Virus record (IMG/VR): IMGVR_UViG_3300048606_000120
Coordinates: 32,001 to 96,000 of that record
Origin: a virus
Taxonomy: Duplodnaviria > Caudoviricetes
Strand: one strand, 5' to 3'
DNA length: 64,000 nucleotides
In this document: one piece after another, positions 1 to 8,989 of the stretch
Layout of the letters: every line of letters starts with the position of its first letter
How positions within the stretch are numbered: the stretch's first letter is position 1
Program-made: the position numbers and the translations under genes
Notes under the pieces: generated by a model
Told to the model about the DNA's origin: nothing
What the model saw: the letters and a program-made list of their open reading frames with translations, nothing else
The model's database searches: none

Positions 1-1023
1 AGTAACGGGCTCAAGGTAGTCAGCACGTTTAGCGGCTGCGGCGGCTCCTGCCTTGGCTTCGAAATGGCCGGCTACCGAATCCTTTGGGCGAATGAGTTCG
101 TGCCAGAGGCGCGCGCGACGTATGTGCAAAACCATCCCGGCGTCATCCTCGACGATCGCGACATCAGGCTCGTGAAAGCAGCCGACATCCTGCAAGCTAC
201 TGGCCTGAAGTCAGGTGAGCTGGACGTCTTTGAGGGGTCGCCGCCGTGCTCATCGTTTTCGACCGCTGGCAAGCGCGCGAAAGGGTGGGGCGAAACCAAA
301 AAATACAGCGATGTAAAGCAGCGCTCGGACGACCTGTTTTTCGAGTACGCGCGCCTGCTAGACGGCTTGCAGCCGAAGGTGTTTATCGCCGAGAACGTGA
401 GCGGGCTCGTGAAAGGCGCTGCGTGGGGCTACTTCGAGCAGATCATTCGCGCGCTCAAGCGCTGCGGCTACCGGGTCAAGGCAAAGGTGCTCGACGCGCA
501 GTGGCTTGGCGTGCCGCAAAAGCGAGCGCGGCTGATCTTCATGGGCGTGCGCGAAGACCTCGAGCTCGATCCAGTGCATCCGAAACCGCTGGCTCGCCGC
601 TACTCGATCCGCGACGCGCTGCCGGCGTTCAAAGGCGTTCTGCAGGTCGGTAACCCGGATCACAAACAGAAGCCTGGCAATAGCTTTCCTCGAGGCGCGA
701 TCGTGCACGCTCACGAAAGCGCGCTGACTGTGTGCGCGGGAGTCGGGACTATGTCTGGTGCGCCTGTTCGGATCTTTGAGAACGGCATCCCGAAGCGTGG
801 CGCGCTAGCCGAACCACGCAAGTTCACCATTCCCGAAATCAAACGGCTATGCGGGTTCCCAGATGATTTCATCCTGACGGGAAGCTTCGCGCAGCAGTGG
901 GAGCGTTGCGGGCGCTCCGTGCCGCCAGTCATGATGTTTCACGTGGCGCGGACGCTGCGGGATGAAGTATTTGGCAAGGTATGCAAGCTGCCGGCTCAAG
1001 CTCGCGAAGCGCGGCCAACCTGA
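1..1023 (+). CDS. C5-cytosine DNA methyltransferase-fold enzyme, predicted carboxymethyltransferase; 5'-truncated by the window edge
   Basis: Frame 1 is open from base 1 (SNGLKVVSTFSGCGG = motif I). Also GSPPC (motif IV), ENVSG (VI), QKRARL (VIII), RLCGFPDDF (IX) and motif X ERCGRSVPP with Arg (913-915) in place of the usual Asn. Confidence 0.93.
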   Translation, partial: SNGLKVVSTFSGCGGSCLGFEMAGYRILWANEFVPEARATYVQNHPGVILDDRDIRLVKAADILQATGLKSGELDVFEGSPPCSSFSTAGKRAKGWGETKKYSDVKQRSDDLFFEYARLLDGLQPKVFIAENVSGLVKGAAWGYFEQIIRALKRCGYRVKAKVLDAQWLGVPQKRARLIFMGVREDLELDPVHPKPLARRYSIRDALPAFKGVLQVGNPDHKQKPGNSFPRGAIVHAHESALTVCAGVGTMSGAPVRIFENGIPKRGALAEPRKFTIPEIKRLCGFPDDFILTGSFAQQWERCGRSVPPVMMFHVARTLRDEVFGKVCKLPAQAREARPT

Positions 1024-2942: not shown

Positions 2943-3665
2943 ATGGACGGTCAAAAAGACGAGGTGGTCCCAAGTGCGCGCTGGGAGTTCGACTCGAACG
3001 TGGCCGCCGCGTTCGACGACATGCTGGCGCGATCGATCCCGCAGATCGATGTCATGCGCGACTCGGTGCACCAGGTGGCACGCCAACACGTTGTTCCGAT
3101 GGCGCCGATCGTGGATCTCGGCTGCTCGCGCGGCGGGGCGCTGGCGCGCTTCGTCGATGAGTTCGGAGTGAGCAATCGGTATTACGGAGTCGACGTGTCC
3201 GAGCCGATGCTCGCCGCGGCGCGCGAGCGCTTCGCGAAGATGGACGGTGTCGTTCAGATCGAGAACCGGGACCTGCGCACGAGCTACCCTGACGTTGGCG
3301 TCGCGTGCGTGACGACCGCGGTGCTCACGCTCCAGTTTGTGCCGATCAACTACCGCCAGCAGATCATGCGGCAGGTCTACGGCCACACGCTGCCTGGCGG
3401 TGCGTTCGTCGTCGTCGAGAAGATCCTCGGCAACGGAGCTCGCGTCGACGACATGCTGGTATCGCTCTACCACCGCTTCAAGGAGCAGAGCGGCGGCTAC
3501 TCGCGCGAAGCGATCGCCCGCAAAGCGGCTTCGCTCGAAGGCGTGCTTGTGCCCGTGACAGCCGAGATGAATGAGCAGATGCTGCGCTCAGCCGGATTTC
3601 GCGAAGTTGACTGTTTTTGGAGATGGATGAACTTCGCCGCGTGGGTTGCGATCAAGGGAGGCTGA
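2943..3665 (+). CDS. cmoA: CmoA-like carboxy-S-adenosylmethionine synthase
   Basis: WEFDSNVAAAFDDMLARSIP, DLGCSRG, LTLQFV, PGGAFVVVEK, FK..GYS..I..K..SLEGV and AGF....FWRWMNF match the CmoA pattern along the whole length. Confidence 0.88.
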   Translation: MDGQKDEVVPSARWEFDSNVAAAFDDMLARSIPQIDVMRDSVHQVARQHVVPMAPIVDLGCSRGGALARFVDEFGVSNRYYGVDVSEPMLAAARERFAKMDGVVQIENRDLRTSYPDVGVACVTTAVLTLQFVPINYRQQIMRQVYGHTLPGGAFVVVEKILGNGARVDDMLVSLYHRFKEQSGGYSREAIARKAASLEGVLVPVTAEMNEQMLRSAGFREVDCFWRWMNFAAWVAIKGG

Positions 3666-3962: not shown

Positions 3963-6911
3963 ATGGCTCCTGACGACGGCGAAATAACGGCTGAGGAGCG
4001 GATCAACGAGGTTGCTGGTCCTCGCGACGTCCTCATGAAGGCCTACTCGATTGGGCTGGAGAAGGCCGAGAAGCAGTCCTCGAGCTCGGCTGACAGCAGC
4101 GGCGTCGTGCAGATGGGGATTATCGCCGATGTCATCGAGCCTCCCTACGATCCACAGGTGTTGTGCAAGCTGTACGAGCACAGCAGCTCGCTGCGGCAAA
4201 ACGTCGATGCCTACGCAACCAACATCGACGGGTTCGGGCACGTGTTCGAGCCGTTAGTTGAGCTGAAGGAGGCGGGCGCTCGCGAGCTCGTGGCGGACGC
4301 GATTTACCTCGAGCGATCGCAGGCGATCAATGAAGGCGTTTTGGGGTCAATCCTGACCACGAATCCTCCGAGCGAAGCGGAGGTCTCGAAGAAGATCGAA
4401 GATCTTCGCTACCAGATGCGGGTCGAGAAGGCTCGGATCGACAGCTTCTTCGAGAACTGCGTTGCTGAGGAGAGCTTCACCCGATTGCGTCGCAAAACGC
4501 GAGAAGACATCGAGGTCACTGGCAACGGTTATTGGGAGGTCATCCGCAACGACTCGGGACAGATCTCGCAGTTCGCCCACATGCCAAGTCGATCCGTGCG
4601 GGTGATGAAGGAAAAGAGCCCGTCCATCAGCGTCACTCAGCCGATCCGCGTCAGCTTGCTGTTGTTCCGACACGAGACATTCAAACGACGTTTTCGCCGC
4701 TACGTTCAGATCGGCGACGAGCACGCGTGGTTCAAGGAGTTCGGCGATCCGACGGTCGTGTCGAACAAGACCGGCAAATCGTTCGAAAACGTCGAAGCTT
4801 TGCGAGCAGTCGAGGGAAGTGCTCAGCCGGCAAACGAGGTTTTCCACTTCAAGATTCCCAGCCTGAAAAACGGGTCGTACGGCGTACCGCGGTGGATCGG
4901 TAACCTGCTTTCGGTGCTCGGCTCGCGCAGTGCTGAAGAGGTGAACCTCGCCTATTTCGACAACAAGTCGATCCCGCCGATGGCGATCCTCGTGTCGGGT
5001 GGTCGCTTGGGCAGTGACTCGGTGAAGCGCATCGAGAGCTTTGTCGAGACTCAACTGAAGGGCCGCAAGAACTACCACAAGATCCTCGTCATCGAAGCTG
5101 AGACAACTGCAGGCTCGATCGGTTTGGCCGACAACAACGGCTCGATGCGAGTCGAGATCAAGATGCTGACCGACGCGCAACTCAAGGACGGCTTGTTCCT
5201 CGCTTACGACGCGGCGAACATGGACAAAGTCGGCATGGGGTTCCGGTTACCGCGCTTGCTTCGTGGTGACATTCGAGATTTTAACCGCGCTTGCTACAGC
5301 GCCGACACGGAAACGCTGACAGAGAACGGTTGGAAGTTGCATCACGAGATTGCGTCAGACGAGCGCATCGCCGTGTTCGATCCGAAAGCTTGCGAGCTCA
5401 GGTTCGAAGTGCCGTCTGCAAAGCATGTCTACGATGTCGACGAAAACCTGTACCGGTTCAACAGCCAGCACATCGATGCGAACGTGACTGCAAATCATAC
5501 GATGTTGGTTCGCTGCCCGGGGCGAGGATGGACATTTGAAGCCGCGGCAGATACCGCTACACGGTCGCGGTTCGAAGTGATGTGTGCGCCCGAGGTCGAC
5601 TCGCACGGTGAGACGATTGGCAAGTTCGTTTTACCCAAGCAGTGCCAGATCGAACGGGGCCATTCTCACGGCCCGATCGCAGGCGACGATTGGCTCGAGT
5701 TTTTGGGGTATTTTCTTTCAGACGGCGGCCTGCTCGAAACAGACAACCCGGCAGCGGAATACCTAGTCTTCATTCGGCAGCAGAAAGAGCCGTGCCGGTC
5801 GAAGATGCAGGCTTGTTTGGACCGCATCGGGTGGGCGTATTCGATTCAGATCAAGGCAGACGGCGCCAATGTCTTCTGCATCTCGAATCGTTGCCTGCGA
5901 GGGTGGTTGCTCGAACATTGCGGGGGTCGTTCTGCGGGTCGTCACATGCCGGCTGGGTATGCGACTGGCTTGCCGCGTGCTCAGCTCAAGATTCTGTGGC
6001 AAGCGATGCTTTTGGGCGACGGCTCGTGTGGAAAACAGTCGACAAACGGCAGCTACTATTCTGCTTCACGAGCGCTGATTGACGACGTGCAGATCGTCGC
6101 TCTCAGGCTCGGGTTGCGCTCTCTCATTCGCTGGGCACCGAACGCGCACGTGTTCCAGCTCGGCTGGTCCACATGGAAGACAACTCAATTGAAGGATTTT
6201 CACGTCGAGGCTGAGCGCTACAAGGGCGAGGTCTTTTGCTTCACATGTCCGGGAGCAGGGTTCTTCGTTACACGCCGCAACGGGAAAATCGCGATCCAGG
6301 GTAACAGTGCAGAAGCGGCGTTGGACTTTGCCGAGTCTCAAGTGTTCGTGCCGGAGCGCAACGACTTCGATTTCACGATGAACCGCTTCATCCTGGCGAG
6401 CTTCGGCATTCGCTATTGGCGCTTCAAGAGCAATGGTCCGCGCCTGAGTGATGCGCAGAGCTGGGGCGAGATGATCGTGAAGCTCACGAACGCGGGAGTC
6501 TTGGTGCCTGCCGATGCTCGCGAGCTCACGAGCAAGAAGGTGCTCGCCCAAGAGCTACCCGTCATCAAAGCCGACTGGGTCAATCAGCCGCTTAGCCTGA
6601 CGATCGCTGGCATTCAAGCGGACAACGCTCTTGATGGTGAGATTCCGATGGCCGTCAGTGGCCCGAGCGGCTCGAGCGGTACCAACGATCAGGGCATCGG
6701 AGTGACGCCGACTCCGAGCTTGCTGAAGGCAGCGAAGGATAAGCTCATGCGCAAGGCGAAGAGCCTCGTGAAGCTGCGCAACGAGTTCTTGAAGCAGCAA
6801 GCCGTCGAAGCCGTGAAAGAGTACCAGGACGAGCGCGTCGACGAAGGCGAGATCGTGTTTCAGATGAGCGCTGCTGAGATGGAGGAGCACTTCGGGATCA
6901 AGCCTCAGTGA
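3963..6911 (+). CDS. Portal protein (PBSX/XkdE-like) containing an intein
   Basis: IEPPYD, TGNGYWEVIRN, YGVPRWIG, N.AYFDN..IP; the exteins rejoin as DFNRA|SAEAA. Confidence 0.92.
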   Translation: MAPDDGEITAEERINEVAGPRDVLMKAYSIGLEKAEKQSSSSADSSGVVQMGIIADVIEPPYDPQVLCKLYEHSSSLRQNVDAYATNIDGFGHVFEPLVELKEAGARELVADAIYLERSQAINEGVLGSILTTNPPSEAEVSKKIEDLRYQMRVEKARIDSFFENCVAEESFTRLRRKTREDIEVTGNGYWEVIRNDSGQISQFAHMPSRSVRVMKEKSPSISVTQPIRVSLLLFRHETFKRRFRRYVQIGDEHAWFKEFGDPTVVSNKTGKSFENVEALRAVEGSAQPANEVFHFKIPSLKNGSYGVPRWIGNLLSVLGSRSAEEVNLAYFDNKSIPPMAILVSGGRLGSDSVKRIESFVETQLKGRKNYHKILVIEAETTAGSIGLADNNGSMRVEIKMLTDAQLKDGLFLAYDAANMDKVGMGFRLPRLLRGDIRDFNRACYSADTETLTENGWKLHHEIASDERIAVFDPKACELRFEVPSAKHVYDVDENLYRFNSQHIDANVTANHTMLVRCPGRGWTFEAAADTATRSRFEVMCAPEVDSHGETIGKFVLPKQCQIERGHSHGPIAGDDWLEFLGYFLSDGGLLETDNPAAEYLVFIRQQKEPCRSKMQACLDRIGWAYSIQIKADGANVFCISNRCLRGWLLEHCGGRSAGRHMPAGYATGLPRAQLKILWQAMLLGDGSCGKQSTNGSYYSASRALIDDVQIVALRLGLRSLIRWAPNAHVFQLGWSTWKTTQLKDFHVEAERYKGEVFCFTCPGAGFFVTRRNGKIAIQGNSAEAALDFAESQVFVPERNDFDFTMNRFILASFGIRYWRFKSNGPRLSDAQSWGEMIVKLTNAGVLVPADARELTSKKVLAQELPVIKADWVNQPLSLTIAGIQADNALDGEIPMAVSGPSGSSGTNDQGIGVTPTPSLLKAAKDKLMRKAKSLVKLRNEFLKQQAVEAVKEYQDERVDEGEIVFQMSAAEMEEHFGIKPQ
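5292..6305 (+). mobile_element. Intein with LAGLIDADG-type homing endonuclease, in the portal
   Basis: Begins CYSADTETLTENGW, block B VTANH, endonuclease blocks FLGYFLSDG and AMLLGDG, ends IAIQGN followed by Ser at +1. Confidence 0.93.
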
Positions 6912-8989
6912 GGCGGCAGCAGCCCACGATTGCAGATGGCATCCGGGCAGCGGAAGATTTGGCGTCGGCGCTGCTCGGCTTCAGCGTTCACAAGGCGACT
7001 GACCCGATGTCACCGAGTGGGTTCTTGCTGATCGGCAAGGCTGTCTCCGAGAAGCTGAAGGGGGCCGTCAAAGGAGCTGAGGCAGACGCGGTCGCCGGCG
7101 TCATTCACAAGCTCGGGTTCGACTGGGCGAAGCTCTCTCCAGAAGCTGCGACGCGCGCGATGGATGCCGTCAATCAGGCGATCGGGGCCTCCTACGAGGC
7201 GAAGGTCATGCCCAAGATCGACGGCGTGTTGGAGATCGAAGGTCCCAAGGTTATGAAGGGGACCAAGAAGTCGATTGCAGTGCGCGAGAAGTTCGCGATC
7301 GCTACGAGCCTCGCTCAACGCGATCTGCAGGCAGAGAAGGCGATTCGCAAGCAGCAAGTGAACTTTATCCGTAACTCGAGCGGCGACCGCATCGCGACTG
7401 CATCGGTCAAAGCTCGGTCGATTGTCGCTCGTGGTGTGCGCGACGGAGTCGGAACTGATTTGATCGCTAAAAACCTGCATTCGCACTTCCTCGAGAACGT
7501 TCCGAGGCCGGAGTCCTATTGGCGAGTGGTGGCCGATGCATTTGTCGGCCGAGCTCGCACGACTTCGCAGGTCTATTCGTACGAGGATTCTGGAGTCGAG
7601 ACGATCGAGATCGTCGCAGTGCTCGATGAGGTGACCACCGACCAATGCCGCTTCATGGACGGCAAAGTCTTCACGATCCAGTCGGCGCGCGCTCTGCTCG
7701 ATACGCTGGGTTCGCTCGAGGAGCCGGAGGATGTGAAGTTCGCAGCGCCGTGGATTCGCAAAGGTCGTGATGAGCAAGGCGGTGGGATGCGCTTGTTCGT
7801 ACCGCATTCCGACGGCTCGACTACGACGATCGCGAAGATCGATCGCAGCGGCATTGGCAGTGCCGATGACAGGGGCCAGTTTTCAGGCGGAAAGAACTCA
7901 GCAGATCTCGCAAAGCTTGGCTCCTCGATGCCGCCCTACCATGGCCGTTGCCGAACAACGACAGTAGCTGCATCGGAGTCAGGCCAATCAGCGCCGGTGA
8001 TGGTGCCGGGCGCCGATCTTCAGGTTCCTGTCGCAGCTCCTGTCGAAGAGGCTCCCTCTCTTCCGCCAGAGGCGGAGATCCCAGATTGGATGACTGCTGA
8101 TGAGCTCAATGTGGTGTCGCAACGGCGAATCGACGGCGGCATGACCGGTGCTCGACAGCTGACGATCAAAGATGCGGACGGCGTCGAACAGCGTGCGGTG
8201 TGGAAAGCAGTCTCGGGCGAAGACGTCGGCGAGGTGCTTCGCAGGGGGGTTCAAGCCGGCACCTACTACCAGCGGGAGGGCGCCGCCTATCAGCTCGATT
8301 CGATGCTCGGCGGAGAGACGGTCGTTCCTCCGACGGTGAGCCGGAAGCATAAGGCATGGAGCAACGCTCACTTTCAAGAGGAAGGTAGTTTGCAGGCGTT
8401 TGTACAAGGGGCGAAGCCGACATCCAATGTTGATTGGAAGAAAGATGCCGGTGGTAAGAGTGCAAACGTGCTTGGCGCCGAGCTTGAACAGAAGCTGGCC
8501 AATGACCCGACCGTGCGTCGGCAGTTTTTGCTCGACGTGATCATGGCGAACGATGACCGCCATTCGGAGAACACTCTGTGGCGCACGGTCGGCGACTCGA
8601 TAAAGCCGGTCGCGATCGACAACGGGTTGAGCTTTCCCGAAAAACCGTGCCGATTTCTTTTCGCAGTGGAGAACTCAACAGAGTTGAAGAAGACGTTACT
8701 GACGTTCGACGAGGGCAGCATTGCGCATCTTGCGAAGCTCGATGTTGAGCGGGTTGCGACGCTGCTGAAGGGGTATGACGGCATCACCGAGACCCAGATC
8801 ACTGCAACTCTCGGCCGCATCCGAGCGTTGCAGAACAACTCGGGCACTCTGGCAGCCGGCGCTCAGTCATGGGAACAGCCGCAAGACACTGTATACTTTT
8901 GGCTTACACGTACTCCAGCAGAACGTGCTAAGCTAGGGGAGTTGACCGATGCCGACTTGGCAGAGATCACGAAACTCGCGAAGCGATGA
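6908..8989 (+). CDS. MuF / SPP1 gp7-like head morphogenesis protein with a C-terminal PI3/4-kinase/HipA-like domain
   Basis: AVLDEVTTDQCRFMDGK and PPYHGRCRTT (MuF); Pro/Glu linker; then AVWK, REGAAYQLD, VVPPT, GSLQAFV, NDDRHSEN, AIDNGLSF. Confidence 0.88.
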   Translation: MRRQQPTIADGIRAAEDLASALLGFSVHKATDPMSPSGFLLIGKAVSEKLKGAVKGAEADAVAGVIHKLGFDWAKLSPEAATRAMDAVNQAIGASYEAKVMPKIDGVLEIEGPKVMKGTKKSIAVREKFAIATSLAQRDLQAEKAIRKQQVNFIRNSSGDRIATASVKARSIVARGVRDGVGTDLIAKNLHSHFLENVPRPESYWRVVADAFVGRARTTSQVYSYEDSGVETIEIVAVLDEVTTDQCRFMDGKVFTIQSARALLDTLGSLEEPEDVKFAAPWIRKGRDEQGGGMRLFVPHSDGSTTTIAKIDRSGIGSADDRGQFSGGKNSADLAKLGSSMPPYHGRCRTTTVAASESGQSAPVMVPGADLQVPVAAPVEEAPSLPPEAEIPDWMTADELNVVSQRRIDGGMTGARQLTIKDADGVEQRAVWKAVSGEDVGEVLRRGVQAGTYYQREGAAYQLDSMLGGETVVPPTVSRKHKAWSNAHFQEEGSLQAFVQGAKPTSNVDWKKDAGGKSANVLGAELEQKLANDPTVRRQFLLDVIMANDDRHSENTLWRTVGDSIKPVAIDNGLSFPEKPCRFLFAVENSTELKKTLLTFDEGSIAHLAKLDVERVATLLKGYDGITETQITATLGRIRALQNNSGTLAAGAQSWEQPQDTVYFWLTRTPAERAKLGELTDADLAEITKLAKR

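Follow-up and report, generated by a model that had tools for sequence, protein, structure and literature searches.

A predicted CmoX-family cytosine carboxymethyltransferase of a soil phage, encoded beside CmoA and a glutaminase-containing amide ligase

Does a phage enzyme with the fold of a C5-cytosine methyltransferase, but with an arginine at the motif X position where such enzymes carry an asparagine, transfer a methyl or a carboxymethyl group, and which DNA base would its neighbouring genes produce? The question is raised by a gene at the 5' end of a window of 64,000 nucleotides, comprising bases 32001-96000 of a 109,517-bp IMG/VR virus record (109.5 kb, direct terminal repeats). An open frame (frame 1) runs from base 1 of the window to a stop codon at 1021-1023 and encodes the C-terminal 340 residues of a protein of C5-cytosine methyltransferase fold (1-1023, plus strand, as for every motif and cassette gene given window coordinates below; PF00145, E 5e-55), a homologue of the DNA cytosine C5-carboxymethyltransferase CmoX. 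The reading frame passes the 5' window edge and is intact in the whole record (L001), where the start with the best support, 78 nt before window position 1, gives a protein of 366 aa (L001 1423-2523). The longest open reading frame comprises 395 codons and the form proposed by the gene caller 349 codons from a later ATG; we preferred the 366-aa start to the latter because the N-terminal segment Y-R-V-P-S-M-A-E-I is conserved in 28 homologues, and residues are numbered accordingly, the motif X arginine being R331. Among public sequencing runs the stretch was found in Logan contigs of one soil-metagenome study only, from which this DNA may itself derive, and no public RNA run was listed for it.

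The first-pass annotation had read motif X of this protein as GRSVPP with an arginine codon CGC at 913-915, and this was confirmed by the frame-1 codons at 895-927 (CAG TGG GAG CGT TGC GGG CGC TCC GTG CCG CCA), which translate to Q-W-E-R-C-G-R-S-V-P-P. HMMER alignments placed G-R-S-V-P of the window opposite G-N-A-V-P of M.HaeIII (1DCT) and E-R-C-G-R-S-V-P-P opposite E-R-V-G-R-M-V-P-P of chain 8YF3_A, in which residue 350 faces Arg331, so that the arginine occupies the position of the motif X asparagine, corresponding to R350 of SpCmoX and N304 of M.HhaI. When the PDB was searched by sequence and by profile, M.HhaI matched over its N-terminal half only and M.MpeI (4DKJ) over motifs IV-VIII only, with motif X outside; the alignment to a motif X asparagine is thus supplied by M.HaeIII, and the equivalence with N374 of M.MpeI was taken from the literature. 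Across 207 close homologues the motif X column holds arginine in 194 and asparagine in 13, and among the 120 best database homologues in 112 and 8, respectively, which argues that the arginine of the window protein is not a chance variant.

The function of an arginine at this position has been described for SpCmoX of Synechococcus phage S-B43, whose 1.9 A crystal structure is 8YF3 (PMC12783734, Nat Commun, December 2025). SpCmoX carboxymethylates cytosine C5 at GpC sites, its activity in vivo needs CmoA, a phage CmoA converts SAM and prephenate to Cx-SAM, and the Asn-synthetase-like ligase SpCmoY then adds glycine (PMC12783734). [quoted passage not shown] For the window protein, 8YF3 was the best solved relative in sequence searches (E 4.6e-65 for the sequence alone and 2.1e-90 for a 29-homologue profile) and also the top Foldseek match (E 1.4e-28, TM 0.70/0.77) of its AlphaFold2 model (pLDDT 83.5, pTM 0.87), with M.HaeIII and M.HhaI behind. 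The proposal of the earlier annotation, in which the natural arginine pairs with the carboxylate of Cx-SAM and turns the protein into a carboxymethyltransferase, is supported by this analogy, and its background, that a basic residue in M.MpeI N374K confers carboxymethyl transfer, was borne out by two further papers. Its suggestion of an R-to-N revertant needs a changed expectation: such a variant of the window protein would probably not switch cofactor, because SpCmoX R350N is dead and not a methyltransferase.

At about 50% over two conserved blocks aligned by HMMER and 32% over the whole Foldseek alignment, identity to SpCmoX is moderate, and all of the contact and catalytic residues considered (F25, E47, F48, D69, C98 and R350 of SpCmoX) are conserved. 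The phenylalanine of the cofactor-binding motif I (F-S-G-C-G-G, 28-45), a motif whose columns are invariant in the homologue alignment, aligns with F25 in 8YF3, and the Glu-Phe of motif II (94-99) and an aspartate at 160-162 align with E47/F48, which serve the ribose hydroxyls and adenine stacking, and with D69, according to the residues given in PMC12783734; these columns, too, are invariant in the homologue alignment. Motif IV reads S-P-P-C (238-249) and holds the catalytic Cys109 (247-249), equivalent to C98, followed by Ser110 (250-252) in the place of the canonical P-C-Q glutamine. Motif VI (E-N-V, 391-399) and motif VIII (Q-K-R-A-R, 517-531) were recognised in the translation and the homologue alignment, so that motifs I, IV, VI and VIII are intact, as had been claimed. 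The target-recognition region between motifs VIII and IX aligned only weakly to 8YF3, and the GpC specificity of SpCmoX can therefore not be transferred to the window enzyme.

The comparison with characterised enzymes sets the window protein apart from ordinary methyltransferases of the M.HhaI/Dcm type. With M.HaeIII and M.HhaI it shares the fold, motifs I, IV, VI, VIII, IX and X and the catalytic cysteine mechanism, but their motif X asparagine (G-N-(A/S)-V) is replaced by arginine and their motif IV P-C-Q by P-C-S (244-252). In M.MpeI N374K and M.MedI N377K the motif X asparagine is likewise replaced by a basic residue, which binds the Cx-SAM carboxylate through a salt bridge and enables carboxymethyl transfer; they differ in that the residue is an engineered lysine rather than arginine, the activity with SAM is kept and the enzymes are CpG-specific. 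In contrast, those features of CmoX that can be read from sequence, i.e. the fold, SPPC, the arginine, the Cx-SAM contacts and a nearby CmoA gene, were all found, and here as in the SpCmoX locus the neighbouring genes include CmoA and an Asn-synthetase-like ligase. The two loci differ in their source, a cyanophage for SpCmoX and a high-GC soil phage for the window protein, in the glutaminase domain of the window ligase, and in a UDG-fold gene which in the window separates CmoX from the ligase.

To define what else distinguishes the two classes, we compared the 194 Arg-type with the 13 Asn-type close homologues. The Asn-type relatives, presumably methyltransferases, are 50-60% identical to the window protein, and S-P-P-C is common to both classes, so that this motif alone does not discriminate between them. 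The residue after the catalytic cysteine (position 110) separates the groups fully: every one of the 194 Arg-type enzymes has Ala or Ser there, and 12 of the 13 Asn-type enzymes have Gln. Furthermore, Glu327 (901-903), four residues before the arginine, is present in all 194 Arg-type but only 4 of the 13 Asn-type sequences, and the catalytic-loop segment Y-S-D-x-x-Q-R-x-D-D (304-333), which has low pLDDT in the model, is conserved in Arg-type enzymes only (S129 in 194/194, R134 in 191/194, D136 in 193/194; variable in the Asn-type). From these patterns we infer that position 110, E327 and the loop changes may shape the pocket for a larger, charged donor. The tree has only 3-5 independent Arg/Asn switches for tests against CmoA, residue 110 and E327, too few for significance; the direction was consistent throughout, with four of five independent pairs as expected and none against.

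The gene neighbourhood supplies the putative source of such a donor. A CmoA homologue, a carboxy-SAM synthase, is encoded at 2943-3665 (phrog_4752), 1.9 kb downstream of CmoX and in the same orientation; its match to TIGR00740 (E 1.5e-42) is full-length but scores 146 bits against an NCBIfam trusted cut-off of 193, and its top PDB matches are H. influenzae YecO and E. coli CmoA (1IM8, 4GEK). Immediately upstream of CmoX lies a ParB-like gene, whose domain was missed by Pfam and recovered by PHROGs (phrog_620, E 1e-26), and a ParB-like gene is also found upstream in many published CmoX contigs (PMC12783734). Further upstream, about 0.9-1.4 kb before window position 1, a pair of small genes overlapping by 4 nt (L001 107-606), the second of which encodes a ParE-family toxin (PF05016, E 5.5e-14), is likely a toxin-antitoxin module preceding the ParB-CmoX cassette.

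A scan of viral contigs with the single sequence yielded 4 loci, and a scan with the CmoX alignment yielded 84 IMG/VR loci, in which CmoA accompanied 69/78 Arg-type and 0/5 Asn-type enzymes. In 48 loci collected through the UDG-like gene the corresponding counts were 11/12 and 0/9. Pooled, CmoA was found within 10 kb of 80/90 Arg-type and 0/14 Asn-type enzymes (raw Fisher p 2.5e-11, uncorrected for kinship), and 10 of the 90 Arg-type loci had no CmoA in the DNA examined. CmoA goes with arginine in each informative pair on the tree; after correction for phylogeny, neither this association nor that with position 110 was significant (sign test p 0.125-0.25; 3-5 switches). The link between arginine and CmoA is consistent with the published biochemistry, and since the sequences are related and the switches so few, we do not take it as independent proof.

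Two readings of the enzyme itself compete with carboxymethyl transfer. The protein could be an ordinary SAM-dependent 5mC methyltransferase which tolerates the arginine, with CmoA serving tRNA modification or another purpose; its fold and all of its catalytic motifs are those of C5-methyltransferases and its relatives at 50-60% identity carry the asparagine. We consider this highly improbable in view of SpCmoX, which with the same arginine rejects SAM entirely (PMC12783734), of the absence of CmoA from all 14 Asn-type loci against its presence in most Arg-type ones, and of the simultaneous replacement of the P-C-Q glutamine. Only marginally less improbable is a promiscuous enzyme using both SAM and Cx-SAM, which would leave a mixture of 5mC and 5cxmC in the DNA: the engineered Asn-to-Lys enzymes M.MpeI N374K and M.MedI N377K do retain SAM methylation, but the natural SpCmoX takes Cx-SAM only (PMC12783734), and the further changes at position 110, E327 and the catalytic loop point to a pocket adapted at more than one residue. 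We favour, with a probability of about 0.88, the reading that the soil-phage gene ending at 1023 encodes a CmoX-family C5-carboxymethyltransferase acting in a proposed pathway that leads from CmoA through CmoX to the ligase. This reading is built on sequence, alignment, fold and gene neighbourhood, with the chemistry and the role of the arginine taken from the homologue SpCmoX; from these we infer the activity, the target motif and the final amide of the window system.

The last step depends on the amide ligase encoded at 1527-2909, a CmoY-type protein of the AsnB (asparagine synthetase B) class whose N terminus forms a glutamine amidotransferase domain (PF13522, PF13537, PF00733; TIGR01536, E 5.7e-78; E. 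coli AsnB 1CT9, E 8e-39). The residues of its class II glutaminase domain (Cys2, R, N-G-E and D) align to the glutaminase site of E. coli AsnB, and the S-G-G-V-D-S PP-loop and the S-G-E-G-S-D-E motif of the synthetase part are conserved. By domain architecture and by its CmoX and CmoA neighbours the ligase resembles the second-largest published ligase cluster (A0A7T0Q3R0), which combines an AMP-forming Asn-synthetase with a glutamine-hydrolysing amidase domain beside CmoX and CmoA (PMC12783734). Ammonia was predicted as the nucleophile of this Gln-type cluster (PMC12783734), and we found no later report on its product in the literature. Because the window ligase carries an intact glutaminase domain, which is absent altogether from SpCmoY, we predict 5-carbamoylmethylcytosine as the end product, a base so far not reported in any DNA.

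Alternatively, carboxymethyl transfer may be followed by a different ending, in which the ligase uses another nucleophile or substrate and the final base is 5cxmC or another amide such as an amino-acid or amine adduct. The one CmoY characterised so far attaches glycine, the glutaminase-containing cluster yielded no soluble enzyme, so that its product is a prediction (PMC12783734), and the C-terminal part of the window ligase is about 90 residues shorter than that of E. coli AsnB. Set against this, the glycine ligase SpCmoY lacks the very domain that would deliver ammonia, and ligases of the window type are full-length, with intact glutaminase and synthetase motifs, in about 20 related loci. 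We regard such a different final base as somewhat unlikely, a good deal less so than the two alternatives for the transferase.

For amidation with ammonia as the final step, the following sequence of events is proposed. CmoA would convert SAM and prephenate of the host to Cx-SAM, and CmoX would flip out its target cytosine, whose C6 would be attacked by Cys109. The resulting C5 carbanion would receive the carboxymethyl group of Cx-SAM, giving 5-carboxymethylcytosine, with Arg331 holding the Cx-SAM carboxylate in place of the motif X asparagine of SAM-dependent enzymes. The AsnB-like ligase could then adenylate the carboxylate and amidate it with glutamine-derived ammonia to 5-carbamoylmethylcytosine, which would shield the phage DNA from host nucleases.

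A gene of the UDG superfamily (981-1487; PF03167, E 1.2e-10) stands between CmoX and the ligase and overlaps the 3' end of CmoX by 43 nt. It belongs to phrog_12275, a small family without assigned function whose members lack Fe-S cysteines and share the conserved motifs V-G-Q-A-P-S, G-K-G-D-x-F-P and P-H-P-S-G-V-N-R-W-W-N. The top fold matches of its confident model (pLDDT 89) were the family 4 UDG 1UI1 and UdgX; matches of the protein to HERC2 were discarded as low-complexity noise. We rejected the idea that the gene is specific to Cx-SAM systems, since its 48 viral loci include 12 with an Arg-type enzyme, 9 with an Asn-type enzyme without CmoA and 26 with no C5 enzyme within 10 kb. The gene is an accessory one, not tied to the carboxymethyl pathway, and it is plausible that the protein handles uracil-type lesions arising from C5-cytosine enzymes.

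Chorismate mutase makes prephenate, the co-substrate of CmoA. A type II chorismate mutase gene adjoins CmoX or CmoA in seven related loci (L138 1468-2160, L094 7563-7958, L124 12025-12306 and L060 2618-3295, as well as L061, L071 and L040), six of which have an Arg-type enzyme on the contig; L138 is without a CmoX gene. One member of the phrog_12275 family forms a fusion protein with a type II chorismate mutase, its contig having the order CmoY, CmoA, fusion, and free-standing mutases occur in six further Arg-type loci, three of them confirmed by Pfam (E 1e-13 to 1e-15). None was found beside an Asn-type enzyme among the loci examined, nor was one found in the genome of this phage. A chorismate mutase beside CmoA or CmoX would supply prephenate for Cx-SAM synthesis. 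Chorismate mutase is not mentioned in PMC12783734, where the availability of prephenate is left as an open question, and the phage mutases beside CmoA bear on it.

A cassette of the same order is present in a cultured phage, Streptomyces phage TurkishDelight (NC_073473), in which gp121-gp125 include a ParB-like gene, an Arg-type CmoX, a glutaminase-containing ligase and a CmoA-like gene. Its CmoX is 48% identical to the window protein and reads SPPC-A, and its ligase is 49% identical over the full length with the PP-loop present; it differs in that the UDG-like gene is absent and the CmoA-like methyltransferase is only 27% identical. The cassette is annotated only as methyltransferase and glutamine amidotransferase, and we found no literature report on DNA modification in TurkishDelight. 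In Pseudomonas phage PaBG, ParB, an Arg-type CmoX (S-P-P-C-K) and CmoA are accompanied by a short Asn-synthetase-like gene that lacks the glutaminase domain. CmoA homologues were found in 82 phage records, among which Erwinia jumbo phages are numerous.

Downstream of the cassette, the portal gene of the window (PF04860, 3963-6911) is split by a large insert that contains a LAGLIDADG homing-endonuclease domain and is probably an intein. It is followed at 6908-8989 by a MuF-like head domain fused to a region weakly resembling PI3/PI4-kinases, both Pfam matches being below the curated cut-offs. Identity to portals of Pseudomonas, Aeromonas and Streptomyces phages is only about 33%; Pseudomonas siphoviruses of the SM1/PaMx31 type are among the cultured phages whose portals come closest, at this identity, to the segment at 3963-5270, and the CmoA matches include Pseudomonas phages from the SM1 host strain. 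Together, the portal and CmoA matches hint at a distant shared lineage carrying the modification system.

The arginine mechanism is already published with structure, mutagenesis and a census in which 5,615 CmoX candidates were gathered by "SPPC plus R350" from IMG/VR v4, UniProtKB and MGnify (PMC12783734). The window protein may already be among these candidates, since the census screened IMG/VR, in which this record is classified. What is new beyond that work are the added signature positions, the prediction of a Gln-type amide, the chorismate mutase cassettes and the cassette of a cultured Streptomyces phage. The wider picture, to which we give slightly less than even odds, is that this phage and cultured relatives, TurkishDelight among them, carry 5-carbamoylmethylcytosine made by CmoA, an Arg-type CmoX and a Gln-dependent ligase; the UDG-fold gene would keep watch over sites left deaminated or unmodified by the C5 enzyme, and the chorismate mutase of sister cassettes would boost prephenate.

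What keeps the locus of interest is the predicted glutamine-type amide, together with the added signature positions and the accessory genes. Loss of the P-C-Q glutamine and the conserved Glu327 may sharpen the sequence signature of CmoX and may also help to engineer carboxymethyltransferases for sequencing methods. Moreover, the cassette belongs to the ligase class that yielded no soluble enzyme in the published work and points to a still-unobserved DNA base, for which TurkishDelight, as a cultured phage with the same cassette, offers a practical system for a direct test.
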